A stretch of 42,135 nucleotides of DNA, taken from a virus. The stretch lies in the IMG/VR virus record IMGVR_UViG_3300045988_041082; one strand, given 5' to 3'. A program made the translations under genes and the position numbers. Positions 9,054 through 42,135 of this stretch are shown here, piece by piece (position 1 is the stretch's first letter; every line of letters starts with the position of its first letter). The notes beneath the pieces are model-generated. The model was given only the letters and a program-made list of their open reading frames with translations, was not told where the DNA came from and made no database searches.

Positions 9054-9068
9054 TTGGGGGGGGGGAGT

Positions 9069-10964
9069 ATGCAACTATTCAAAGGATATGTTCAAACTAA
9101 AAATAAAAAGTGCATAGAATCCTTTAAGGGCAGAACAGACTTGAAAACCCTTGACCAAGTAAAGGAACTTCCTGAATACGCTGGTATTCTTGCAGAAGAA
9201 ACAGTTTTGATTGATATTGATGATGCGGAAACATCAGAAATTCTTTTCAAAATTGTTCAAGATTTAGAATTGAAGTGTAGGGTTTACCAAACCACAAGGG
9301 GCAAGCATTTCTTGTTCAAAAACAGTGGTATGGAAAAGAACAAAACTGGATGCAAGCTTGCTATTTGCCTTCCTTCTGATATTAAACTTGGGTGCAACAA
9401 TTCTTATTCTATCCTGAAGTTCAATGGTGAAGATAGAAAAGTTCTGTATGATGTTCCTGAAGCTGAAATTCAAGAATGCCCAAAGTGGTTGTTTCCTGTT
9501 AAAACAACTACTGAATTTCTTGATATGGAAGCTGGGGATGGTAGAAACCAAAGCTTCTTCAACTACATACTTACTTTGCAAGCTTCTGATTTCACAGTGG
9601 AAGAAGCAAGGGAAACAATCAGCATTATTAACAAGTATGTTCTGAAGAACCCGCTTTCTGATAGGGAACTGAAAACCATTCTTAGGGATGATGCCTTTAA
9701 GAAGCCCATTTTCTTCAAGGGCAATACATTCTTGTTTGATAAATTTGCAACTTACATCAAGAACAACAACCACATCATCAGAATCAATGGAAGATTGCAC
9801 ATTTACAAAGATGGGGTTTATGTAAGTGCTGATAGTGAAATTGAATCCATGATGATTCAGCACATCAGCAACCTTAACAAGACCAAAAGAAAAGAAGTTC
9901 TTGCTTATCTTGAACTTCTGATAAGGGAAAACAAGAAAGAAGCAAGTTCCAACTTGATTGCTTTCAAAAATGGAATTTACAACATCCTGGATGATTCCTT
10001 TGTTCCCTTCAACCCTGAAATCATTATAACTAACCTGATTCCTTGGGATTACAACCCCGCTGCTGAAAATGAATTGGTGGATGCAACCCTTGATAAAATG
10101 GCTTGCTATGATGAACAGATTAGGGCATTGCTTGAAGAATGCGTTGGTTACTGCTTTTACAGAAGAAATGAACTTGGTAAAGCTTTCATTTTCACTGGTG
10201 AAGGTGCAAATGGTAAATCCACTTTCATTGATATGATTAAAACAATGCTTGGGGATGAAAACATTGCTTCCCTTGACCTGAAGGAACTTGGGGATAGATT
10301 CAAAACTGCTGAACTTTATGGAAAGCTTGCCAATGTTGGTGATGATATTGGTGATGAATTCATTGCTAATGCTTCAGTGTTCAAAAAACTTGTTACTGGT
10401 GAAAGGGTTAGTGTTGAACGAAAAGGACAAGACCCATTCGAATTCAACAACTATTCCAAGTTTCTGTTCAGTGCTAACAATATTCCAAGAATGCGTGATA
10501 AGACTGGTGCAGTTCAAAGAAGGCTTACAATCATTCCTTTTGAAGCTAAGTTTTCCAAGGAAGATGCTGATTATAGACCTTTCATAAAATATGATTTGCG
10601 GGAACAATCAGCAGTTGAAAGGCTTATTCTTCTTGGGATTGAAGGACTGAAGCGAGTTATTGCAAACAATGCCTTCACTAAGGCTGAAAAGGTTGATAAT
10701 GCCCTGAAGGAATATGAGGAAGAAAACAATTCTATCATCAGCTTTGTGAATGAATTTGGTGTTGAAAACATTGAAAATGAACCTACAAAAAATGTGTATG
10801 CTGCTTATTCAGAATTCTGTTTTGTAAATGGCTTGAAAGAAGCTTATTCCAATATCAGCTTCAGTAAGCAGATTCAAAAAAGATATGGGTTTGATATTGT
10901 ATCAACCCGCCTGAAAAGTGAAAACAACATGGTTTGTAGAGTGTTTAAGAAAAGGAAGGGTTAA
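9069..10964 (+). CDS. Primase-helicase: Prim-Pol-like N-terminal domain plus a D5/P4-alpha-type SF3 NTPase.
   Basis: LIDIDDAE...TTRGKHFLF (primase region); FTGEGANGKSTF Walker A; D5-like C-terminal domain. ATG 9069 is preceded by the G10 tract 9056-9065. Confidence 0.8.
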   Translation: MQLFKGYVQTKNKKCIESFKGRTDLKTLDQVKELPEYAGILAEETVLIDIDDAETSEILFKIVQDLELKCRVYQTTRGKHFLFKNSGMEKNKTGCKLAICLPSDIKLGCNNSYSILKFNGEDRKVLYDVPEAEIQECPKWLFPVKTTTEFLDMEAGDGRNQSFFNYILTLQASDFTVEEARETISIINKYVLKNPLSDRELKTILRDDAFKKPIFFKGNTFLFDKFATYIKNNNHIIRINGRLHIYKDGVYVSADSEIESMMIQHISNLNKTKRKEVLAYLELLIRENKKEASSNLIAFKNGIYNILDDSFVPFNPEIIITNLIPWDYNPAAENELVDATLDKMACYDEQIRALLEECVGYCFYRRNELGKAFIFTGEGANGKSTFIDMIKTMLGDENIASLDLKELGDRFKTAELYGKLANVGDDIGDEFIANASVFKKLVTGERVSVERKGQDPFEFNNYSKFLFSANNIPRMRDKTGAVQRRLTIIPFEAKFSKEDADYRPFIKYDLREQSAVERLILLGIEGLKRVIANNAFTKAEKVDNALKEYEEENNSIISFVNEFGVENIENEPTKNVYAAYSEFCFVNGLKEAYSNISFSKQIQKRYGFDIVSTRLKSENNMVCRVFKKRKG

Positions 10965-10967
10965 GTG

Positions 10968-11624
10968 ATGATTAAAGACAGTGGAAACAGAACCAACTTT
11001 GAAAGCGGTGCTGTTAGGGATATTCAAAGCGGAAAAGGAAGGTGTGATTTAATGCCCCTGGGTGTTGTTGCTAACCTTATTGATTCTGAAGAAATCAGGG
11101 GAATTTCCATTTTCAAAGATACTGGTGATACTGATTTTCTGTATGCTTGCCTGAAGGAATTCTGCAATGATTCCCCCTTTTTCAGTGCTTATACCATGCT
11201 GCTTGAAGTGGCAAAGCACTTTGAAGAAGGTGCTGAAAAGTATGGTGAAAACAATTGGCAGAAAGGAATTCCAGTTCACAGCTACATTGATTCTGCAATC
11301 AGGCATTTGCTTAGATACTGGAACAATGAAAATGATGAAAGGCATGATAGAGCTTTTTGCTGGAATATCCTTTGTGCAATTTGGACTTGTGAAAACAAGC
11401 CTGAACTGAATGATTTCAGTGTAAAGTGTGCTGAAGATGATTCTGATGATAGAACGGTATTTGAAGTGGTAAGGGCTATTGCAAAGGATTTGGGTATTGA
11501 AGTTCAGTTTGTAGAAGATTATTGCACTAAGTGCATCCACAATGACAAAGAACCAAAGGAATTCCCTTGCAGTGAATGCAGTTCCAAGTTTGATGAAATG
11601 CCTACTAAGTTTGAAAGGAAGTAA
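10968..11624 (+). CDS. Putative nucleotide pyrophosphohydrolase (resembling the phage dATP/dGTP diphosphohydrolase N-terminal domain) with a C-terminal zinc ribbon.
   Basis: GAEKYGENNWQKGIP...DSAIRHLLRYW motif pattern; CTKC...CSEC. The family assignment rests on recall and is tentative. Confidence 0.4.
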   Translation: MIKDSGNRTNFESGAVRDIQSGKGRCDLMPLGVVANLIDSEEIRGISIFKDTGDTDFLYACLKEFCNDSPFFSAYTMLLEVAKHFEEGAEKYGENNWQKGIPVHSYIDSAIRHLLRYWNNENDERHDRAFCWNILCAIWTCENKPELNDFSVKCAEDDSDDRTVFEVVRAIAKDLGIEVQFVEDYCTKCIHNDKEPKEFPCSECSSKFDEMPTKFERK

Positions 11625-11629
11625 TTGAT

Positions 11630-12256
11630 ATGAGAATTATTGAACCAAGTGTTGAAATCTTAACCCCTATTGATGGTGAAGCTATTCTTAAAATGCTTGA
11701 AGCGGTTGGAAGAACTTGTTATAAATCTGAAGATAAGATTCAGGAAGGTTCTGCTGAAAAGTTTATTTCCAACATTGTAAAGCGTGGGCATGAAGCAGTT
11801 ATTGAGCATTACAACATTACAGTAAAGTTTATTTGTGATAGAGGGGTTACACATGAAATTGTAAGGCACAGATTAGCTTCTTATTGCCAAGAATCAACCC
11901 GCTATTGCAATTATGCCAATGATAAATTCAATGGTGAAATCACAGTGATTAAGCCTATGTTCCTTGAAGTTGGAACAGATGGTTGGGAACTTTGGCATGA
12001 TGCTTGTGCTATGGCTGAAAAATTCTATTTTGATTTGCTTGATTTTGGATGTACCCCACAGGAAGCAAGGGCGGTTCTTCCGAACAGCTTAAAAACTGAA
12101 CTTGTTATGACTGCAAACATCAGAGAATTCAGGCACTTCTTCAATCTTAGATGTTCAAAGGCTGCACATCCTCAAATGCGTGAAGTTGCAAATATGCTTC
12201 TTAGAGAATTCAAAGAAAGGATTCCTGTTCTGTTTGATGATATTGAAGGGATGTGA
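11630..12256 (+). CDS. thyX: Flavin-dependent thymidylate synthase ThyX.
   Basis: ThyX signature RHRLASYCQES (RHRx7S); conserved ...NLRCSKAAHPQMREVA region; size about 208 aa. Confidence 0.8.
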   Translation: MRIIEPSVEILTPIDGEAILKMLEAVGRTCYKSEDKIQEGSAEKFISNIVKRGHEAVIEHYNITVKFICDRGVTHEIVRHRLASYCQESTRYCNYANDKFNGEITVIKPMFLEVGTDGWELWHDACAMAEKFYFDLLDFGCTPQEARAVLPNSLKTELVMTANIREFRHFFNLRCSKAAHPQMREVANMLLREFKERIPVLFDDIEGM

Positions 12257-13810: not shown

Positions 13811-14104
13811 ATGCCCCCAAAAGACTTTATAAAGACAGAAGCAAAAGTGTTCCTGGATGGTAAGGAAGTTACAAATTTTTTTACTGAAGAAGTTCAGGTT
13901 ATTGGAACTGATGAATGTAATTCAGGGGAAGTTCTTAAACTGTATGATTCTTTCAGTGGAACAATTACCCTTTCAGGAAAACAAGCAAAGCGGTTTATCA
14001 AAGCAATGGTGAAAGCTGAAAGAAAGCACAAAATGCAGATTTTGAAAAGTAAGTTTCAAAATCTGTTCAAGGTTGTTGCAGATTTGTTCAAGGTTGGAAA
14101 GTGA
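13811..14104 (+). CDS. Hypothetical protein (97 aa).
   Basis: ORF in an operon context. Confidence 0.45.
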   Translation: MPPKDFIKTEAKVFLDGKEVTNFFTEEVQVIGTDECNSGEVLKLYDSFSGTITLSGKQAKRFIKAMVKAERKHKMQILKSKFQNLFKVVADLFKVGK

Positions 14105-14400
14105 ACCTTGAACAGCAGAAACCCTTGAAAACAAAGGCTTTTCAGTAGTGGTTGTTAAAGGTGTTCAAGATGTTCAAGGTAATATATTACTTAGAATATA
14201 AATTTGAATAAAAAAAAATTGAGTAAGAAAAAAATATTTTTTTTTTCTAAAATATATAAGTATATAGAAAATACCTTGAACACCTTGAACATTGAACAAG
14301 ATTTTGCCCTGAAACCCTTGAAAATAAAGGCTTTTTCCTTGTTCAAGGTTGAGAAGGGCAAAAATCAACCTTGAACAAGAATCTTGAACAAGAAAGAAGG
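14105..14400. repeat. Repeat-rich noncoding region A. It holds about 9 copies of (C)CTTGAACA(AG) in both orientations, where the full unit CTTG-NN-CAAG is palindromic. It also holds a GAAACCCTTGAAAACAAAGGCTTTT element, an inverted pair GTGTTCAAG/ATGTTCAAGG, and an A/T-tract core. It is about 80 percent homologous to region B (40925-41200). Candidate origin/iteron array or operator cluster.
   Basis: Motif copies at 14106, 14161(rc), 14170(rc), 14274, 14283, 14293, 14337 (palindrome CCTTGTTCAAGG), 14369 and 14383; A9/T10 tracts at 14210-14247. Confidence 0.7.
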
Positions 14401-14407
14401 TGTAAAC

Positions 14408-14848
14408 ATGAATGTAAAAGAGTATTTGAAGAAAGCTTATAGATTAGATAAGCTGATTAAATCCAATATGCGTGAGATAGAAGAACTAAAAGCTTTAGCT
14501 GAATGTGTTTCTTCTGTTCAAATTTCAGATATGCCAAGAAACCCTTCACATAGTAATGAAGCCCCATTTGTGAAGCCAATTCTAAAGATGTTAGAACTTC
14601 AGCAAACCATTGAAAACGAAATTACAGATTTTGTTGCAACCTTAACTGAAATCAGGGAAATCATTTATTCTATTGATAATCATGAACAGATTCTTTGCTT
14701 GAAGTGCAGATACTTAGAATTTATGAAATGGGAAGCTGTTGCAAATGAAATGGAACTTTCCCTGAAGCAAGTTCACAGAATTCATAATGAAGCATTGAAT
14801 TCCATAAAAATTAAGTATATGGAACGATTTGACACACTTTTGCCATAG
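14408..14848 (+). CDS. Putative late-gene transcriptional regulator, DUF1492-like with a sigma-70 region-4-like C-terminus.
   Basis: MNVKEYLKKAYRLDKLI...SDMPR...ILCLKCRYLEFMKWEAVANEMELSLKQVHRIHNEAL pattern; position immediately upstream of terS. ATG 14408 with SD AAGAAGGTG. The ORF-track TTG 14384 lies inside the repeats. Confidence 0.55.
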   Translation: MNVKEYLKKAYRLDKLIKSNMREIEELKALAECVSSVQISDMPRNPSHSNEAPFVKPILKMLELQQTIENEITDFVATLTEIREIIYSIDNHEQILCLKCRYLEFMKWEAVANEMELSLKQVHRIHNEALNSIKIKYMERFDTLLP

Positions 14849-14918: not shown

Positions 14919-14959
14919 TATTCTTGTATAAAAATATACAGAAAGGAAGGTGAATTTCA

Positions 14960-15391
14960 TTGACTGATAAGCAAAGGAAGTTTTGTGATGAATACTTGAT
15001 TGATTGCAATGCAACCAGGGCTTATAAGGTTGCTTATCCTAATATCAAGAATGATAATGTGGCAAGTGCAGCGGGAACAAGACTGTTAGGAAATGTTAAG
15101 ATTAAAGCTTACATTGATACAAAGCTTGAAGAAATGAGTTCTGCAAAGGTTGCCAGTGCTGAAGAAGTAATGAAATACCTTACTTCTGTAATGCGTGGTG
15201 AATGCACTGAACAGATACCCCTTCTGATTGGTGAAGGGATTCAAAAGCTTGCTGATAAAGATATTGGTGCAAAGGAACGCTTGAAAGCTGCTGAATTGAT
15301 TGGTAAGCGTTATGGGCTATTCAGTGATAAGGTTAATTTTGAAGGAACTTTGCCAGTCATGATTGTGGGTGAAGATAACCTTGAAGAATAA
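14960..15391 (+). CDS. terS: Terminase small subunit (Terminase_2 family).
   Basis: DKQRKFCDEYLIDCNATRAYKVAYP...ASAAGTRLLGNVKIKAYID pattern; TTG start with SD AGGAAGGTGA. Confidence 0.8.
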   Translation: MTDKQRKFCDEYLIDCNATRAYKVAYPNIKNDNVASAAGTRLLGNVKIKAYIDTKLEEMSSAKVASAEEVMKYLTSVMRGECTEQIPLLIGEGIQKLADKDIGAKERLKAAELIGKRYGLFSDKVNFEGTLPVMIVGEDNLEE

Positions 15392-32878: not shown

Positions 32879-33425
32879 AAGAACACTGATTGAATATCTC
32901 CCCCACATCATCAGGGATGTAAGAGAATACAAGGCAATTATGAATGATGCTGAACAGCCTGAAATGGTAGATGTTTGGCAAGCGGTTGATGATGCCTTGA
33001 ATGACCAATTCATTGTTGATGCAACTGAAAATGGTGTTTCCAGGTGGGAAAAAATCTTGGGGATTGTTCCACAAGCAACCCTTACTTTGGAAGAAAGAAA
33101 GTTTACCATTCTTACAAGAATCAATGAACAGCTTCCTTTCACTATAAGAACTTTGGAAGAATCCCTAAAATCTTTGTGTGGTGCTGAAGGGTATGTGGTT
33201 CAGCTTCAAGCAAATGAATATATCCTAATTGTAAAGGTTGCATTGGTAGCAAAGCACAATTTTGATGATGTTCAAAGACTGCTTGAAAGAATTGTTCCAG
33301 CTAACATGATTATTCAGCTTAGTATTATCTACAATACCCATGAAGTTCTTGGGGGCTATACCCATCAGGAACTTCACAGATATACACATTATGAATTAAG
33401 AAATGAGGTGCTAACACATGAGTAA
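32871..33425 (+). CDS. XkdU-like tail protein (DUF2313, tail protein I-like).
   Basis: LP..I.......AI...E.........VSRWEKILGI pattern. Confidence 0.65.
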   Translation: MYERTLIEYLPHIIRDVREYKAIMNDAEQPEMVDVWQAVDDALNDQFIVDATENGVSRWEKILGIVPQATLTLEERKFTILTRINEQLPFTIRTLEESLKSLCGAEGYVVQLQANEYILIVKVALVAKHNFDDVQRLLERIVPANMIIQLSIIYNTHEVLGGYTHQELHRYTHYELRNEVLTHE

Positions 33426-35676
33426 AACCCCAAATTACAATTTGAACAAACCCGCACAAACTGATTTTTATGATGTGGATGTTCAAAATGAAAACATGGA
33501 TAAGATTGATACAGCTTTAGCTAATAAAGTTGATAAGGTTGTTGGAAAAGGCTTATCCACAAATGATTACAATGCAACAGACAAAGGAAAAGTTGATAAT
33601 CTTCCTACTGATACTAACACTGAACTTGGTAAGAAAGTTAATAATCAGACCTTTGACAACCATAAGAATGATACTAACATTCATACCACTTCTGCTGAAA
33701 AAGAAAAGTGGAACAAGGGTGTTCAGAAGGTAACTGGTGCTACTACTGGAAATTTATCCGTTTTTGATTCTGAAGGTGGAATTGTTGATTCCAACAAAAA
33801 GCCTTCTGATTTCCTTGGTTCTGCACATGGAACTGCAACCATTATTGGTGAACCTGGGCTTCATGGAATCCGCTATTGGAATGAAAAGCTGGAAGTTCTT
33901 GTTGATGGTGCTTGGAAACAGGCAAGCAGCGGTGTTGGTATTGAAGTTGATGTAACTGTTCCAACTGGTTCTGTTGTTACTGCTACTGATGGTGAAAATG
34001 TGGTAACTGGAACAGCAGTAAACAATGCCCTTAAAGTGGCACTTCCTAACTATGGAAGCTGGGTATTTTCCGCAACCCTTGATGGTGAAACAAGTAATAC
34101 TGTTACCCTGAATTGTGATACTTCCAAGGTTTACAGTGTTACCCTTACTTATTTCACTGCAACAATCAAGGTAACTGCTAAAAGCGGTTCTGTTGTAACC
34201 ATTAAGAAGGGTTCTGTTGTTCAGACTGCTACAAGCACTGGAACTGCAACCTTCACTGTTAAGGAAGCTGGAACATATTCTGTTTATGCTACTTATGATG
34301 GTGTAAATTCCAACACTGTAATTGTAAATGCAACTACAAGCGGTGGAAGCTATACTGCAAGTGTTTCCTTTATTACCCTTACTGTTTCCATCAAAACTGG
34401 TTCAACTGTTGTTGTAACTAAGGGTTCTTATTCTTACAGTAAGGTAAGCACTGGAACAGCAGTGTTCTATTTGCCTGAAACTGGAACTTGGAGTGTAACA
34501 GCTTCGCTTTCAGGTGATACGGCAACTGGAACTATCAGTTGTTCTTCCTACACTGCTTATAGCATTACCCTGAATTACTTCAAAATCTTTGGTGTAAGCA
34601 TTGACCTTACCAATTCTGACCCCGCTTCAGCAGTTACTTACACTGATGATGCTGTTGGAATGACTGCTGGGGGTTCTGCTTGGGATTCTGAACCCATCTT
34701 CAAGGATATTAAGCCTTGCTTGCTTTTGAATGGTGTGGTTCAGAAATACCTTAACAAGAACAACTTTGCACAAGATGAAGATGGGAACAGTGCTGATATT
34801 ACAAGTGGTTCTGCTGGTGATGTAATGGTTGAAATTCCTAAGTGTGGTGTTAAAATTGCTACTTCAGGAAACACATTAACTATTAAGATTACAGATAATC
34901 CAAATGCTACTGCTGATGGCTTCCATTATTATGCACATACAAGGGCAACTGAAGGTGATTGTGATAAGCTTTATATTGGTGCTTATGTTGGTTACAGTTC
35001 CAGTAGTAAGCTTAGAAGTTTAAGCGGAAAATCCCCTACTGTTGATAAGACCATTGGGGCATTTAGAACATTGGCACAAGCTAATGGTGATGGATATGAC
35101 CAAATTTCCTTCTATCCTTTGACCTTGCTTCAGTGCTTGTTCCTTATCCGTTATAAGAACAGGAATTCCCAAACTGCACTTGGTAGGGGTTATGTTGATG
35201 GTTCTGCAAAAACTAACACTGGTGCAACCAATGCAAATGGTATGTACTATGGCAGCACTTCAGGAACAACCCATGTTAAGTTTGCTGGTATTGAAGATTT
35301 TTGGGGGAATATTTTCTATTTCATTGATGGTATTTACAGTGATTCCAGCAGAAATATTCTTACTGCTTTTGATAACTTCAACGATACTGGCAGCGGTTAC
35401 ACAAGTAGAGGACAGGGGGCAACTTCTAATATTGGTAACTATATGAGTAAGCCCCAAGGCACAACTGAAACAGGCTTTATTGCAAAAGAAGTTAATGGTT
35501 CTTCCACAACTCACTTCTGCGATTACGCTACTTTGAACGCTTCCCGCGTGGCTTATTTCGGTGGCTATTGGAATTATGGTGATGTTGCGGGTGCTTTTCG
35601 GCTTGGTGTGTATCTTTCGGCTTCGAGTTCGAGTTCGTATTATGGCGGTCGGCTGATGTATTTGAAGGCATCCTAA
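33418..35676 (+). CDS. Tail fibre / receptor-binding protein and DGR target. It has a conserved phage-fibre N-terminus, repeated beta-sandwich modules, and a C-terminal CLec-like domain that carries the variable repeat.
   Basis: MSKTPNYNLNKPAQTDFYDVDVQNENMDKID N-terminus; internal roughly 40-aa TGT/SGS-rich repeats. The last 149 nt before the stop are homologous to the downstream TR, with A-specific differences. Confidence 0.85.
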   Translation: MSKTPNYNLNKPAQTDFYDVDVQNENMDKIDTALANKVDKVVGKGLSTNDYNATDKGKVDNLPTDTNTELGKKVNNQTFDNHKNDTNIHTTSAEKEKWNKGVQKVTGATTGNLSVFDSEGGIVDSNKKPSDFLGSAHGTATIIGEPGLHGIRYWNEKLEVLVDGAWKQASSGVGIEVDVTVPTGSVVTATDGENVVTGTAVNNALKVALPNYGSWVFSATLDGETSNTVTLNCDTSKVYSVTLTYFTATIKVTAKSGSVVTIKKGSVVQTATSTGTATFTVKEAGTYSVYATYDGVNSNTVIVNATTSGGSYTASVSFITLTVSIKTGSTVVVTKGSYSYSKVSTGTAVFYLPETGTWSVTASLSGDTATGTISCSSYTAYSITLNYFKIFGVSIDLTNSDPASAVTYTDDAVGMTAGGSAWDSEPIFKDIKPCLLLNGVVQKYLNKNNFAQDEDGNSADITSGSAGDVMVEIPKCGVKIATSGNTLTIKITDNPNATADGFHYYAHTRATEGDCDKLYIGAYVGYSSSSKLRSLSGKSPTVDKTIGAFRTLAQANGDGYDQISFYPLTLLQCLFLIRYKNRNSQTALGRGYVDGSAKTNTGATNANGMYYGSTSGTTHVKFAGIEDFWGNIFYFIDGIYSDSSRNILTAFDNFNDTGSGYTSRGQGATSNIGNYMSKPQGTTETGFIAKEVNGSSTTHFCDYATLNASRVAYFGGYWNYGDVAGAFRLGVYLSASSSSSYYGGRLMYLKAS
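35517..35665 (+). repeat. DGR variable repeat (VR) at the 3' end of the tail-fibre gene.
   Basis: 149-bp gap-free alignment to 35722-35870 with a constant offset of 205 bp; 32 mismatches, 29 of them where the TR has A. Confidence 0.8.
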
Positions 35677-35900: not shown

Positions 35901-36041
35901 GGCTTCAATATAAATTGCCTTAGTTGCCATGCCCCTTGGCAAAATATAAAAACCTTTTACACTGTATTAGTAGACCTTGCCCATTCGCAAGGGTTGAAAG
36001 TTCGGTATTAAAAAACATCAAAAGAAAGTTCAGGTGAAACA

Positions 36042-37106
36042 TTGAAAAGATACGGAAACATATATGAAAAAATCTATGATATGGAAAACCTGAAGGAAGC
36101 ACATAGAAACGCAAGGAAAGATAAGCTGTTTTATAAAGAAGTGAAAATGGTTGATTCAAACCCTGAATTTTATCTTACCCAAATTCAGCAGATGCTAAAG
36201 GATAAAACTTACAAGGTAAGCCCTTACACTGTTCAGAAGATATGGGATAAGGACAAAGAAAGGGAATTGATGAAGCTTCCTTACTTCCCTGATAGAATTA
36301 TTCAATGGGCGGTAATGATTCAGATTGAAGATGTATTTCATGAAGTGTTCACAGATTTCACTTGTGCATCCTTAAGGAATCGTGGAATCCATAAAGCTTC
36401 TAAACTGCTTACCAAGTACATGAAGGATGTACCAGGAACAACATACTGTTTGAAGATTGATGTTTCTAAATTTTATCCGAACATCAACCATTGTGTATTG
36501 AAGAAGCTTCTTAGAAAGAAATTCAAGGATGCAGATTTGCTTGAATTGTTGGATTTAATCATTGATAGCATCCCTGGTGAAGTAGGTGTTCCAATTGGTT
36601 CATACCTTTCACAATATCTTGCAAACTTTTATCTTTCCTACTTTGACCACTGGTTAAAAGAAGAAATGGGTGTTAAGTATGTAGTAAGATACATGGATGA
36701 TATTGTAATTCTTCATCATTCTAAGGAATTTCTGCATTGGCTGAAAGATAGAATGGATGAATACCTTCAGGGAAACTTGAAGCTGAAAATCAAAGATAAT
36801 TGGCAAGTGTTCCCCACTAATTCAAGGGGTGTTGATTTTGTTGGTTATCGTCATTTTTTCGGTTTTAAGCTTTTGAGAAAGAAAACTTATAAACGCTTCA
36901 GGAAGCGGATGCTTTCTATTGCAAGAAAGATAAGAAAAGGAACATCAATCAGTTATAAAGATTGGTGTTCCTTTAATTCTTACAAAGGTTGGTTAGATTG
37001 GTGTGATTCCTTCAGATTGAAAATGAAGTATGTTGTTCCAATTCAAGCTGCTATGGATGAATATTATCTTTCAAAAATTAAAAGAAAGGCGGTAATGCAA
37101 ACATGA
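36042..37106 (+). CDS. Diversity-generating retroelement reverse transcriptase (Brt-like).
   Basis: N-terminus MKRYGNIYEKIYDMENLKEA parallels BPP-1 Brt; RT motifs PYFPDRIIQWAV, SKFYPNINH, the DGR-specific VGVPIGSYLSQYLANFYL (IGxxxSQ), RYMDDIVIL and NSRGVDFVGYRHF. No maturase or endonuclease domain. TTG start with SD AGGTGA. Confidence 0.9.
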   Translation: MKRYGNIYEKIYDMENLKEAHRNARKDKLFYKEVKMVDSNPEFYLTQIQQMLKDKTYKVSPYTVQKIWDKDKERELMKLPYFPDRIIQWAVMIQIEDVFHEVFTDFTCASLRNRGIHKASKLLTKYMKDVPGTTYCLKIDVSKFYPNINHCVLKKLLRKKFKDADLLELLDLIIDSIPGEVGVPIGSYLSQYLANFYLSYFDHWLKEEMGVKYVVRYMDDIVILHHSKEFLHWLKDRMDEYLQGNLKLKIKDNWQVFPTNSRGVDFVGYRHFFGFKLLRKKTYKRFRKRMLSIARKIRKGTSISYKDWCSFNSYKGWLDWCDSFRLKMKYVVPIQAAMDEYYLSKIKRKAVMQT

Positions 37107-39724: not shown

Positions 39725-39748
39725 TGTTACTAACCTGTTACTAACGCT
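39725..39748. repeat. 24-bp direct repeat, copy 1 (tandem TGTTACTAAC decamers). Candidate integrase arm-type site or attP element.
   Basis: TGTTACTAACCTGTTACTAACGCT; 23 of 24 identical to 39899-39922. Confidence 0.6.
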
Positions 39749-39817
39749 GATGATTTTAGGGTGTTTTTGACGGTTCAAGAACTTGAAGAACCCCTGAAAA
39801 CACTGAATTTACTGCAC

Positions 39818-39846
39818 TTGAAAAACTAACAGATTTATGGTATAAT
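39818..39846 (+). promoter_or_regulatory. Near-consensus sigma-A promoter with an extended -10 (TTGAAA-17-TGgTATAAT), inside the candidate attP. It faces the terminator 39859-39896, predicting a transcript of about 45 nt.
   Basis: TTGAAA 39818-39823, 17-nt spacer, TG 39838-39839, TATAAT 39841-39846. Confidence 0.45.
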
Positions 39847-39858
39847 ATTTCTAACTAA

Positions 39859-39896
39859 GCCCCAAACCTTTGATTTACAAGGGTTTGGGGCTTTTT
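39859..39896 (+). terminator. Intrinsic terminator: 10-bp GC stem GCCCCAAACC/GGTTTGGGGC followed by T5.
   Basis: Inverted repeat 39859-39868 / 39882-39891, loop of 13 nt, TTTTT 39892-39896. Confidence 0.7.
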
Positions 39897-39898
39897 CT

Positions 39899-39922
39899 TG
39901 TTACTAACTTGTTACTAACGCT
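39899..39922. repeat. 24-bp direct repeat, copy 2. It overlaps the last codons and stop of int.
   Basis: TGTTACTAACTTGTTACTAACGCT; the int C-terminal codons ...LVTS-stop are encoded by its reverse complement. Confidence 0.6.
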
Positions 39923-40923
39923 AAAGCATTTTGAAGTTCTTCAAGCGTTTTATGGGTGTAAACCCTTTCACCTACTTCATGGGATTTATGCCCCATCATT
40001 AAATCAATACAAACTTTATTTGCCCCCGCTGAATCAAGCCTACTTCTGAAAGTATGTCTGCATTCGTGGGGTGTGTGTTCCTGGTTCAGCTTCTTCATAA
40101 ATTGATTCCAAATGATGTAGTATTGGCTATTTGAAATTTTCTTTCCATTAACGGAAATCAAATATTTGTTTCCTTCTTGAACCCTTGCTTTGACAAAATC
40201 CAAAATCAAAGGGTGGATTGGAACAATTCTATCTTTACCAGCTTTTGTTTTAACCCCGCCTTTAAAGTAAGGTATATCTTCCAGGTTAATCTTTGCAGTT
40301 TCCAAAGAAAGAAGTTCACTGATTCTAAATCCTGAATAAAGCAAAATTAAAATTGTATCTGCATCAGGTTCATCTTTCAGCTTCCAAACATCCTTTATTT
40401 CATCTTCAGTGAAAGGCTTTTTGCTTGAAGGTGGAATTGGTGCTGCATGAATCAGCATTGAATTCATCTTTGTTATTATATCAAGTTCCATAGCGTATTT
40501 ATCAAGTTGCCCCCATAGGTTCTTGATTGCCCCTTGGGTAGAATAACCTTTTCCACAATTATCAATTGATTCTTGCATCATATAAGCCTTGATTTTCTTA
40601 TAGGGCATATCCCAAAGCAACTTGCAGTGATTCATTGCTGATTTGAAGCTGGATGCACTTGATTTAGATATTTTTGGGAAATCCCTTTCAGACCATCTTT
40701 CATACAGTTCTTTCATTGTTATCTTGGATAAATCAATATCATAGGGATTTCTATTGTATTCAGCAAGGGCAATCATTGCTTCTTGCCTTGTTTTGTAATA
40801 TCCAACTGGTTTATAGATTGGTTGCCCTTTTTCATTCCATCCAACTGTTTTTCTTGCACAGAAGGGATTTCTTCTATTACCTGAAAGCTTTACAACTGAA
40901 CCATACCCATTAGGATTTTTCAA
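39904..40923 (-). CDS. int: Tyrosine integrase (phage integrase family, AP2-like N-terminal arm-binding domain).
   Basis: N-terminal NPNGYGSVVKLSGNRRNPFCARKTV...YYKTRQEAMIALAEYN; catalytic HECRHTFRS...GH..H...Y (R-H-R-Y family). Likely TTG start at 40923 with SD AAGAAGGGA. The ORF-track start 40977 lies inside the CTTGAACAA repeats. Confidence 0.9.
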   Translation of the reverse strand: MKNPNGYGSVVKLSGNRRNPFCARKTVGWNEKGQPIYKPVGYYKTRQEAMIALAEYNRNPYDIDLSKITMKELYERWSERDFPKISKSSASSFKSAMNHCKLLWDMPYKKIKAYMMQESIDNCGKGYSTQGAIKNLWGQLDKYAMELDIITKMNSMLIHAAPIPPSSKKPFTEDEIKDVWKLKDEPDADTILILLYSGFRISELLSLETAKINLEDIPYFKGGVKTKAGKDRIVPIHPLILDFVKARVQEGNKYLISVNGKKISNSQYYIIWNQFMKKLNQEHTPHECRHTFRSRLDSAGANKVCIDLMMGHKSHEVGERVYTHKTLEELQNALALVTS

Positions 40924-40924
40924 G

Positions 40925-41200
40925 AAATCACATCCCTTCTTTAACTTGCTTGAACAACCTTGAACAACCTTGAACAAGCTTTTTAGTTCTGAAAACCCTT
41001 GAAAACCCTTGAAAACAAAGGCTTTTTTAAGTTGCTGCTAACTTGCTTGTTTAAGATGTTCAAGGTGTTACGCATTTTCTATTTACTCAAATATTTTGAT
41101 GTAATCTAAAAAAAAAATATAAGAAGAAAAAAAATCTAAAATATTTAAGTATAAGGAAATACCTTGAACATCTTAAACACCTTGAACAAATTACAGAGTA
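40925..41200. repeat. Repeat-rich noncoding region B, homologous to region A. It holds three tandem CTTGAACAAC decamers (10-bp period) abutting the int start, two tandem AAAACCCTTG units plus AAAACAAAGGCTTTTTT, an inverted GATGTTCAAGGTGTT, an A-tract core, and two CCTTGAACA copies at its right end.
   Basis: The block 41106-41190 aligns with 14247-14300 (CTAAAATAT.TAAGTATA.AG.AAATACCTTGAACA...CCTTGAACA). The block 40996-41032 aligns with 14120-14146. Confidence 0.7.
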
Positions 41201-41598
41201 ATAGAACCTGAAGAAATGTTGGTTCTGATTTCATCAAAGAACTTTCTTCCAGTAGAATCAACAGACCAAAAAGCAAGATATTTGGATTCACCTGAAGAAC
41301 TGGTGTAACTTACAACAGAAAACCACTTAACCCCCATCTTAGCTGTTGAAACAGGGTTATTGTGATACTTACCCATAAAGTTTACTTCAGGCATATAATC
41401 AATACTTTGGATTTGGGCAAATGGCAGCTTAACAGTTCCATTGTTTTCATTGGTGAAAATGATGCAAGAATCATCCACATCAGCCTTGCAAGGGAAATCT
41501 TGCCTGAAACCTTGTAAACCTTCATAGTGCATCAGGGTAGTTCTTGAATCTTTCTTTTTCTTTGAAAATAACATTTCAATCATCCTTTCTAAAATCAA
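41191..41598 (-). CDS. Hypothetical protein (135 aa) between the repressor and int; candidate lysogeny-expressed gene.
   Basis: ORF transcribed in the same direction as cI; no recognisable domain. Confidence 0.5.
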   Translation of the reverse strand: MILERMIEMLFSKKKKDSRTTLMHYEGLQGFRQDFPCKADVDDSCIIFTNENNGTVKLPFAQIQSIDYMPEVNFMGKYHNNPVSTAKMGVKWFSVVSYTSSSGESKYLAFWSVDSTGRKFFDEIRTNISSGSITL

Positions 41599-41613: not shown

Positions 41614-41997
41614 CTACGCGTTTGATAATTCTTTTTTCACATCATACTTTTCATCAGTTAAGCGGTATGCAATCCATTTGAACAGTTCATTTTTATCAAG
41701 TGCATCAAGTTTATGGTACATATCAAGAAGTTCCTTTTCTTCCTTTGATACCACAGTTTTGATTTCTTCAACCCTTTGAATTGGAACATTATACCCCATC
41801 AACCAGGCTTCAGATACATTAAGAGCCTTTGCAATCTTATGAATTGCAACTTGCTTTGGTTCATACTTACCCGAAATGTATTGGCTTATTGCAGATTTAC
41901 CTATTCCAGTTGCCTGAACTAAATCAACAGCTTTCATTCCCCTAAGTTCCATTCCCTGACGGATTCGCCTGAAACAAGCTTCTTTCTGTTCATTCAT
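41614..41997 (-). CDS. cI-like repressor (XRE-family HTH, no peptidase S24 domain).
   Basis: MNEQKEACFRRIRQGMELRGMKAVDLVQATGIGKSAISQYISGKYEPKQVAIHKIAKALNVSEAWL HTH. ATG 41997 with SD AGAAAGGAAGGTG. The ORF-track start 42027 would overlap the -10 box. Confidence 0.8.
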   Translation of the reverse strand: MNEQKEACFRRIRQGMELRGMKAVDLVQATGIGKSAISQYISGKYEPKQVAIHKIAKALNVSEAWLMGYNVPIQRVEEIKTVVSKEEKELLDMYHKLDALDKNELFKWIAYRLTDEKYDVKKELSNA

Positions 41998-42026
41998 AAG
42001 AACACCTTCCTTTCTAATACGATTCA

Positions 42027-42055
42027 ATTATATCACTAAGTTCAAGAAAAATCAA
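42027..42055 (-). promoter_or_regulatory. Repressor (maintenance) promoter on the - strand, TTGATT-17-TATAAT, diverging from the early promoter 40 bp away.
   Basis: Reverse complement of 42050-42055 gives TTGATT; 17-nt spacer; reverse complement of 42027-42032 gives TATAAT. The 14-bp palindrome AAAATCAAGATTTT (42047-42060) overlaps the -35. Confidence 0.5.
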
Positions 42056-42080
42056 GATTTTCCGAAAAAAGCTCAAGAAA

Positions 42081-42135
42081 TTTTGAAAAACCTATTGACA
42101 AACAAAAATGGACTTGCTATAATAAAGACAGTTCA
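42081..42135. repeat. Copy 2 of the 55-bp terminal repeat (identical to 1-55). It contains the second copy of the early promoter -35/-10 (42095-42123).
   Basis: Exact identity to the window start. Confidence 0.9.

Follow-up and report, generated by a model that had tools for sequence, protein, structure and literature searches.

What is served by a gene-free block, crowded with short repeats, that lies between the replication genes and the late regulator gene of an uncultured phage? The question is raised by IMG/VR virus record IMGVR_UViG_3300045988_041082, a 42,135 nt stretch of DNA that is here called the window. A first-pass annotation had marked positions 14105–14400 of the window as a 296 bp non-coding block, here named block A, with a duplicate, here named block B, next to the integrase gene int, and had proposed a replication origin, an operator cluster for a dimeric helix-turn-helix (HTH) protein, or both. 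We conclude that block A is very probably an iteron-type replication origin of the phage, with block B a second copy of it; of the two proposed functions, the origin stood and the operator did not. We read the locus in this way because the putative initiator protein and the DNA architecture are homologous to those of experimentally studied origins (Sfi21 and SaPI) and are conserved in relatives. What is new here is a further case of the already known Sfi21/SaPI-type iteron origin, and two side observations, a box shared across genera and the second array copy beside int, are modestly novel.

Anatomy of block A

The repeat cluster that had been reported is real. There are 26 exact matches to CTTGAACA on the two strands of the window, where shuffled sequences gave 3.21 ± 1.91 (largest shuffle 8), and the matches are clustered, with 10 copies in 14064–14390 and 6 in 40949–41188; the motif is not similarly dense across the genome. 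When one mismatch to CCTTGAACA was allowed, block A was found to contain 12 iteron copies. Those on the left start at 14064(−), 14085(−), 14106(+), 14153(−), 14162(−) and 14171(−), and those on the right at 14274(+), 14283(+), 14290(+), 14340(−), 14369(+) and 14382(+). Two more one-mismatch matches fall within the boxes described below. The array begins at 14064 and not at 14105, as the first two iterons are inside the 3′ end of the open reading frame (ORF) at 13811–14104; these two iterons and the boxes had been missed.

The functional unit is the asymmetric 9-mer TGTTCAAGG, and not the CTTG-NN-CAAG palindrome that had been put forward as the site. A perfect 12 bp version of the palindrome, CCTTGTTCAAGG, is indeed present at 14337–14348, as is the 10-mer CTTGAACAAG at 14370 and 14383. 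Only 4 copies carry the CAAG extension, and we therefore regard the palindrome as incidental. Tandem copies had been described as 9–10 bp apart, and the measured spacings are 9 bp (14153/62/71 and 14274/83), 10 bp in block B (40948/58/68) and also 13 bp (14369/82).

Read from left to right, block A opens with the outer-left iterons (14064–14114, both strands), which are TGTTCAAGG at 14064–14072 (−) and 14085–14093 (−) and CCTTGAACA at 14106–14114 (+). Box 1 (GAAACCCTTGAAAACAAAGGCTTTT; 14118–14142, + strand), a 25 bp quasi-palindrome, separates them from the inner-left iterons (14153–14179, − strand), which are the three head-to-tail 9-mers TGTTAAAGG, TGTTCAAGA and TGTTCAAGG. The A9/T10 core noted earlier is part of a 94 bp segment (14180–14273) that is approximately 89% A+T, compared with 62.6% for the genome, and includes A9 (14210–14218), A7 (14228–14234) and T10 (14237–14246) runs; it is the proposed DNA-unwinding region. 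On its far side are the inner-right iterons (14274–14298, + strand; CCTTGAACA, CCTTGAACA and CATTGAACA), which are opposed to the inner-left set, then Box 2 (GAAACCCTTGAAAATAAAGGCTTTT; 14311–14335, + strand) and the outer-right iterons (14340–14390) at 14340–14348 (−), 14369–14377 (+) and 14382–14390 (+). The last of these stops 3 nt short of the ribosome-binding site of the next gene.

No sigma-70-type promoter was predicted on the + strand of block A, and no Rfam family matched block A or the box. Searching the whole of block A against cultured phages by DNA similarity returned nothing useful, and only the short box query reached Sfi21.

Proposed initiator, known origins and iteron types

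The origin of the Streptococcus thermophilus phages Sfi21 and Sfi19 is reportedly a 302 bp non-coding element with a phage-encoded-resistance (PER) phenotype, described by Foley and co-workers in 1998. The corresponding GenBank entries (AF115103 and AF077306) are annotated 'origin of replication, 302 bp non-coding region, phage inhibitory sequence' in Sfi21 and 'rep_origin' in Sfi19, and the box used alone as a BLAST query matched both annotated origins with 92% identity over 24–25 nt. Passages of PMC6356513 state that the Sfi21 element acts as an infection-activated origin and in multicopy inhibits phages in a copy-number-dependent manner. Comparison of the Sfi21 origin and block A revealed that both are non-coding and A+T-rich, contain direct and inverted repeats, and lie at the end of the replication module in front of the ribosome-binding site of the next gene. 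Their parts also follow one order: outer iterons, box, two or three inner iterons, A+T-rich core, opposed inner iterons, box and outer iterons. The Sfi21 box (AAAACCCATTGAAAATAAAGGGTTT) is nearly identical to the window box GAAACCCTTGAAAATAAAGGCTTTT, while the iterons differ (GTTACT/GGTTAC in Sfi21 and TGTTCAAGG in the window), as expected because the initiator is different. The two loci are also distinguished by host group, by the second array beside int in the window's lineage, and by position, as the Sfi21 primase gene overlaps the outer iterons of the origin at its 3′ end and block A is 3.1 kb away from its counterpart.

That counterpart is the primase-helicase gene (9054–10964, + strand), whose product has Pfam D5_N, a DUF5906 SF3 helicase domain and a Pox_D5 C-terminal region and is the proposed initiator. 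Residues 248–608 align with residues 383–743 of SaPI5 PriRep5 (PDB 7OLA; E = 7.5e-40) in a match that extends into the PriRep5 C-terminal domain, and the protein also matches the putative primase of Sfi21 (E = 9e-33). The closest primase-helicases from cultured elements are those of Paenibacillus phage Wanderer (52% identity), the Staphylococcus epidermidis element PI-Sepi-HH2 (45%) and Bacillus phage BMBtp15 (42%). In domain organisation, the protein also resembles the alpha protein of phage P4, which has primase, SF3 helicase and C-terminal winged helix in one polypeptide (PMC2777425).

According to passages of PMC9371898, SaPI Reps are initiator-helicases in which a C-terminal winged helix reads short iterons, and SaPI origins follow a rule: 3′ of rep, an A+T-rich centre is surrounded by 6–12 iterons, of which each side has at least 2, in opposite orientation. 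Block A conforms to this rule, having 12 iterons with three (−) copies to the left of the core and three (+) copies to the right. PriRep5 and the putative initiator of the window each combine primase and SF3 helicase in one chain with a C-terminal DNA-binding region, proposed in the case of the window, and in both systems, as far as those passages go, the iteron sequence is specific to the element. They differ in that the SaPI iterons described there are penta- or hexanucleotides immediately 3′ of rep, and those of the window are 9-mers 3.1 kb away. The box is not mentioned for SaPI origins in the same passages, and the window is a complete temperate phage with two arrays where a SaPI is a satellite. 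As a gap of 3.1 kb and eight ORFs separates block A from the primase-helicase gene (1.3–3.8 kb among the 80 relatives introduced below), we class block A as working like a SaPI origin and not as a SaPI origin. The same architecture immediately follows the homologous primase gene in Wanderer, BMBtp15, PI-Sepi-HH2 and a Streptococcus satellite, each with iterons of its own sequence (GTAACAGAT, ATAAGACA, GGTTACAG) and with recognisable boxes. An A+T-rich core between opposed iterons is also present in Sfi21, Wanderer, BMBtp15 and PI-Sepi-HH2.

The following mechanism is proposed. The primase-helicase, an SF3 helicase with homologues in SaPI PriRep5 and in the primase of Sfi21, would recognise the 9 bp iterons TGTTCAAGG through a winged-helix-like domain at its C-terminus, assemble where the two inner sets of iterons oppose each other and melt the 94 bp A+T-rich core between them. 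It would then load itself as the replicative helicase and prime synthesis, with the outer iterons, and the boxes between outer and inner iterons, aiding the building of the complex. The C-terminal approximately 90 residues (about 546–636) are the proposed iteron-binding winged helix. A structural model of residues 501–636 has a helix-helix-helix-beta-hairpin arrangement with a pLDDT of 78 (80–93 over approximately 560–636), and the best Foldseek matches to it, which were not significant (E at least 0.2), are the winged helices of Orc1/Cdc6, ORC and the African swine fever virus (ASFV) PrimPol, a primase-helicase.

Specificity was examined in 80 IMG/VR loci with primase-helicases 65–97% identical to that of the window. 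A classifiable array was present in 63 of the 80, in addition to the window itself, 1.3–3.8 kb 3′ of the primase-helicase gene and directly 5′ of a DUF1492-like gene, and the block is kept in every close relative with the same replication genes. Six iteron types that share a GTTnnA core were distinguished (TGTTCAAGG, GGTTCAAGGT, GGTTCAAGATG, ATCTGTTCC, ATGTTGAAGG and ATCTGTTAC). Those of the relatives (ATCTGTTCC, ATGTTGAAGG, ATCTGTTAC and GGTTCAAGATG) are asymmetric and occupy the same positions as the iterons of the window. The iteron type corresponds to the class of the last approximately 40 residues of the primase-helicase in 62/64 loci. This is the stretch of the protein that diverges most between iteron types; between the types designated C and D, identity is 0.54–0.78 there and 0.83–0.99 elsewhere. 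In type C and D relatives the iteron 9-mer is essentially confined to the array, and no other cluster was found within 10 kb either side of the primase-helicase gene.

Other candidate iteron binders did not fit. The gene next to block A (14408–14848, + strand) encodes a Sigma-70-region-4/DUF1492-like regulator, and its earlier assignment to DUF1492 is only partly upheld, with a weak Pfam match (DUF1492, E = 0.0047, below the cut-off; Sigma70_r4, E = 7e-4) and a clear PHROGs match to phrog_36, transcriptional regulator (E = 2e-19). It varies independently of iteron type and was rejected as the binder: the window and loci L040 and L041 have the same iterons and regulators that are only 32–34% identical, and L063 and L071 have the same first approximately 190 nt of the regulator gene and different iterons. 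The ORF just upstream of block A is a variable cassette that was met with several iteron types, and was rejected on the same grounds. These comparisons also bear on the idea that block A is a binding region or promoter for a DUF1492/ArpU-type late activator, or a structured RNA. It is the immediate 5′ neighbour of the regulator gene, with the terminase genes nearby, and, as single strands, its inverted iterons are capable of folding (z −3 to −4). Set against this are the two mismatches of regulator and iteron just described, the arrays in L016 and L024, which are not beside such a regulator gene, and the lack of any Rfam match or, for the box alone, of any fold (z about 0). Tandem direct repeats at 9–10 bp also suit protein binding better than RNA stems. 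We consider this explanation to have hardly any likelihood.

The operator alternative holds that a cI-like protein, a Cro-like protein or ORF135 binds the repeats, those of block A to control the DUF1492 regulator and those of block B to control int, with replication starting elsewhere. The closeness of the iterons to the ribosome-binding site of the regulator gene and to the likely int start (approximately 30 bp downstream of the block B iterons), and the position of block B within the lysogeny module, would suit such a role. So would three GTTCAAGAA boxes placed around the divergent promoters that separate cI from the early operon (42040–42135 and 1–100), which are kept in L040 and L041 and resemble the iteron TGTTCAAGG. 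However, the same architecture is the annotated origin in Sfi21 and Sfi19 and recurs behind the primase gene of satellites and phages whose regulators are unrelated, and the iteron type tracks the primase-helicase C-terminus and not DUF1492. Among the regulators this comparison covered DUF1492, as the switch region that encodes cI and Cro falls outside most of the loci. The iterons are asymmetric, with the palindrome confined to the four copies mentioned, no + strand promoter was predicted in block A, and the type C and D 9-mer does not cluster outside the array within the 10 kb searched. We therefore regard operator clusters as quite improbable. The likeness of the GTTCAAGAA boxes to the iteron may be a coincidence or may reflect a link between immunity and replication.

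Several points count against the reading of block A as an origin served by the primase-helicase. The origin call for this phage is based on sequence. Eight ORFs, over 3.1 kb, intervene between the primase-helicase gene and block A, whereas the array is immediately adjacent to the primase or rep gene in SaPIs, Sfi21, Wanderer and BMBtp15. The winged-helix fold of the C-terminus is weakly indicated by the model. As the iteron types are largely clades, shared descent inflates the co-variation of iterons and C-termini, and two loci, L071 and L118, are discordant, each with one iteron type and the C-terminus of the other; no other protein within 10 kb tracks the iteron type in these two. Because the three GTTCAAGAA boxes resemble the iteron, a repressor could also touch the arrays.

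Of the two discordant loci, L071 has a type D origin cassette (14930–15140) in an otherwise near-identical type C phage, and L118 has a type D primase-helicase C-terminus (11600–11900) in an otherwise near-identical type C phage. They may be assembly chimeras of one large co-assembly (sample 3300045988), or else natural recombinants in which origin and initiator are mismatched.

The second array and the conserved box

Block B (40948–41188), between the 5′ end of int and the stop of the ORF at 41191–41598, is a second, shorter copy. It bears out the duplication reported earlier and matches block A colinearly over the left two thirds of the latter. It is made up of iterons at 40948, 40958 and 40968 (+), a tandem box at 40990–41026, an iteron at 41057 (−), a core of 96 bp (41066–41161; approximately 82% A+T) and iterons at 41162 and 41180 (+). 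This amounts to 3 outer iterons, 1–2 left inner iterons and 2–3 right inner iterons, and every part of a minimal SaPI-type origin is present. Block B was retained with its iterons in all 3 contigs that carry a relative of the window's integrase. No second array was found within 10 kb in type B–E loci or in the whole genomes of Wanderer and BMBtp15, which have a single iteron cluster each, and we conclude that block B is a lineage-specific duplication. As its iterons are approximately 30 bp upstream of the likely int start, binding there could affect int expression.

By analogy with phage P4, block B could be a second origin or a crr-like helper, firing in its own right or assisting block A. 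P4 has two iteron clusters kilobases apart, ori and crr, one near int and one after the replication gene, and crr is required in cis. The window, too, has two clusters of one iteron, both kept in its lineage; in Wanderer and BMBtp15 a single cluster suffices. The type I iteron of P4, TGTTCACC, resembles TGTTCAAGG. The primase of P4 alpha is of the DnaG type, unlike that of the window.

The box has the consensus AAAAsCCTTG-N5-nnAGGsTTTT, a 25 bp quasi-palindrome, and its three copies in the window are 96–100% identical (repeat family D15). Among the arrays of the primase-helicase family it is found at fixed positions in 48 of 52 distinct examples, and across the 63 relatives the pattern is 41-fold denser inside arrays than outside. 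From phages and elements of Streptococcus, Staphylococcus, Bacillus and Paenibacillus to those of gut Clostridia it is nearly letter-for-letter alike, while the surrounding iterons vary freely. An exact 23-mer, AACCCTTGAAAAYAAAGGCTTTT, was found in 24 IMG/VR stretches from approximately 8 unrelated families. Some of these copies are within arrays of other repeats, namely GGAACAT 3′ of a VapE-type helicase gene, GGTGACGAGG 3′ of a D5-type gene and GTAACAAAA 5′ of a DUF1492 gene. No discussion of the box sequence was found in the literature, where only unrelated primers were returned.

As the box lies between outer and inner iterons and is present in a satellite of few genes, we infer a role in bending or docking. 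It is most likely a bend or docking point, and would be engaged there by a conserved protein of the host or by some conserved portion of the helicase. Two broader proposals, that the box is a hitherto undescribed universal module of SF3 primase-helicase origins in Bacillota and that blocks A and B act as a P4-like ori/crr pair, are tentative and on balance doubtful. Under the first, the box may be a docking or bending site for a host protein or helicase domain, or a melt-prone palindrome. The SV40 early palindrome is a melt-prone palindrome with which the box can be compared.

Other roles for the box were considered and rejected. Single-strand folding (−1 to −3 kcal/mol, z about 0) does not indicate a terminator or hairpin, and by eye no −10 hexamer is 16–18 bp away from any copy, as a sigma-70 −35 element would have. 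The 15 scattered matches of a genome scan do not share a single locus, and the box was rejected as a conserved host attB. Some of these copies follow tRNA-Trp in Blautia/Eubacteriales, others precede HU genes in Bacillus, and the rest lie elsewhere; Pfam searches of the genes neighbouring box copies in genomes were uninformative.

Blocks A and B could also be partner sites of attP type, with the box as a 7-N7-7 core and the repeats as arm sites for the tyrosine integrase. Block B abuts int, the box can be written as the quasi-palindrome AAsCCTT-N7-AAGGCTT, with perfect arms in L121, and the 23-mer is found in Bacillus halotolerans (L027), with TGGTCAAA repeats on its flanks, beside an integrase fragment, and also adjoining a serine recombinase gene (L014) and 4 nt after tRNA-Trp in Blautia metagenome-assembled genomes (MAGs). 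Yet arrays like block A are inside or after the replication modules of many phages, including Sfi19, which is called virulent in the title of a cited paper, and this integrase is carried by only 3 contigs, compared with a classifiable array in 63 of the 80 relatives. The iterons track the primase-helicase and not int, no conserved attB locus emerged from the 15 genome matches, integration at block B would split int from cI, and a more conventional candidate is present 3′ of int. An attP function for the two blocks is thus exceedingly unlikely, and the origin remains the reading that we prefer.

The candidate 3′ of int consists of TGTTACTAAC doublets at 39725–39757 and 39899–39931, between which are a consensus promoter (TTGAAA-17-TATAAT; 39818–39846) and, 10 bp past it, a terminator with a 16 bp stem (39857–39893). 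We regard the region 39725–39931 as a candidate either for an attP that has arm-type sites or for a tiny RNA gene.

Copies of the box were also seen in three other settings. In Blautia/Eubacteriales MAGs (L030, L034, L035 and L036) it is part of a conserved unit in the order promoter, tRNA-Trp(CCA), 23-mer box, GGTAATCA-type repeats and terminator, with the box 4 nt after the tRNA gene; the unit occurs in differing contexts and twice in one MAG. In two Bacillus genomes and one unrelated MAG (L025, L031 and L037) the 23-mer is 100–190 bp 5′ of HU-family genes. In Wanderer (MH431930; L122 5540–5790, about 36200–36450 in the phage) there is a second intergenic array, 5′ of the primase gene, made up of TGAAGG-N5-CCTTCA inverted pairs and one box (AAACCCTTGATATGACTGGTTTTG). 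As this second array holds a box, the box also accompanies non-origin repeats within one phage.

Gene context and wider meaning

Bases 1–55 of the window are an exact repeat of 42081–42135. This 55 bp direct repeat at both ends shows the contig to be closed into a circle of 42,080 bp (or terminally redundant), so that block B and the cI/early-promoter region run on into position 1. The gene layout is, by all appearances, that of a temperate siphophage. The tyrosine integrase gene int (39904–40977, − strand), an ORF of unknown product (41191–41598, −) and a cI-type HTH gene (41614–42027, −) precede a consensus rightward promoter (42095–42123). The early operon encodes an SNF2 helicase, a PD-(D/E)XK/AAA_24 protein, a DUF669 protein, a polymerase-like ORF whose matches to family-B DNA polymerases are all below threshold, the D5-type primase-helicase and ThyX. 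The regulator and terminase genes come after block A. The host is probably a gut member of the Lachnospiraceae; weak terminase-gene matches to a Dorea phage and to phage records from human faeces point that way, as does the presence of the exact 23-mer box in Blautia MAGs.

Two further features were recorded, one in the window and one in a related phage. In the window, an RT-17 RNA (Rfam RF03020; 63 bits, E = 4e-10) is directly 5′ of a reverse-transcriptase ORF (36042–37106; RVT_1, E = 5e-19) that is preceded by a 752 aa ORF (33418–35676), and the region 35925–37106 looks like a candidate diversity-generating-retroelement cassette in the tail region. In a related phage (L043), positions 2465–2650 hold 12 tandem 15 nt units (GAACAGCGGTGATTC/GAACAGCGGTAATCG) within an ORF.

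The locus gives a confident origin call for an uncultured temperate phage of the gut, and suggests a search rule for phages and satellites of Bacillota: opposed iterons around an A+T-rich core, with flanking boxes, 3′ of a PriRep-type primase-helicase gene. The six iteron types, paired with variants of the primase-helicase C-terminus, would form a natural series for working out a winged-helix recognition code, and the box could point to a common host factor or to a common step of helicase self-loading. Candidate uses of such elements include phage-encoded-resistance decoys as well as plasmid or phagemid vectors for gut Firmicutes.

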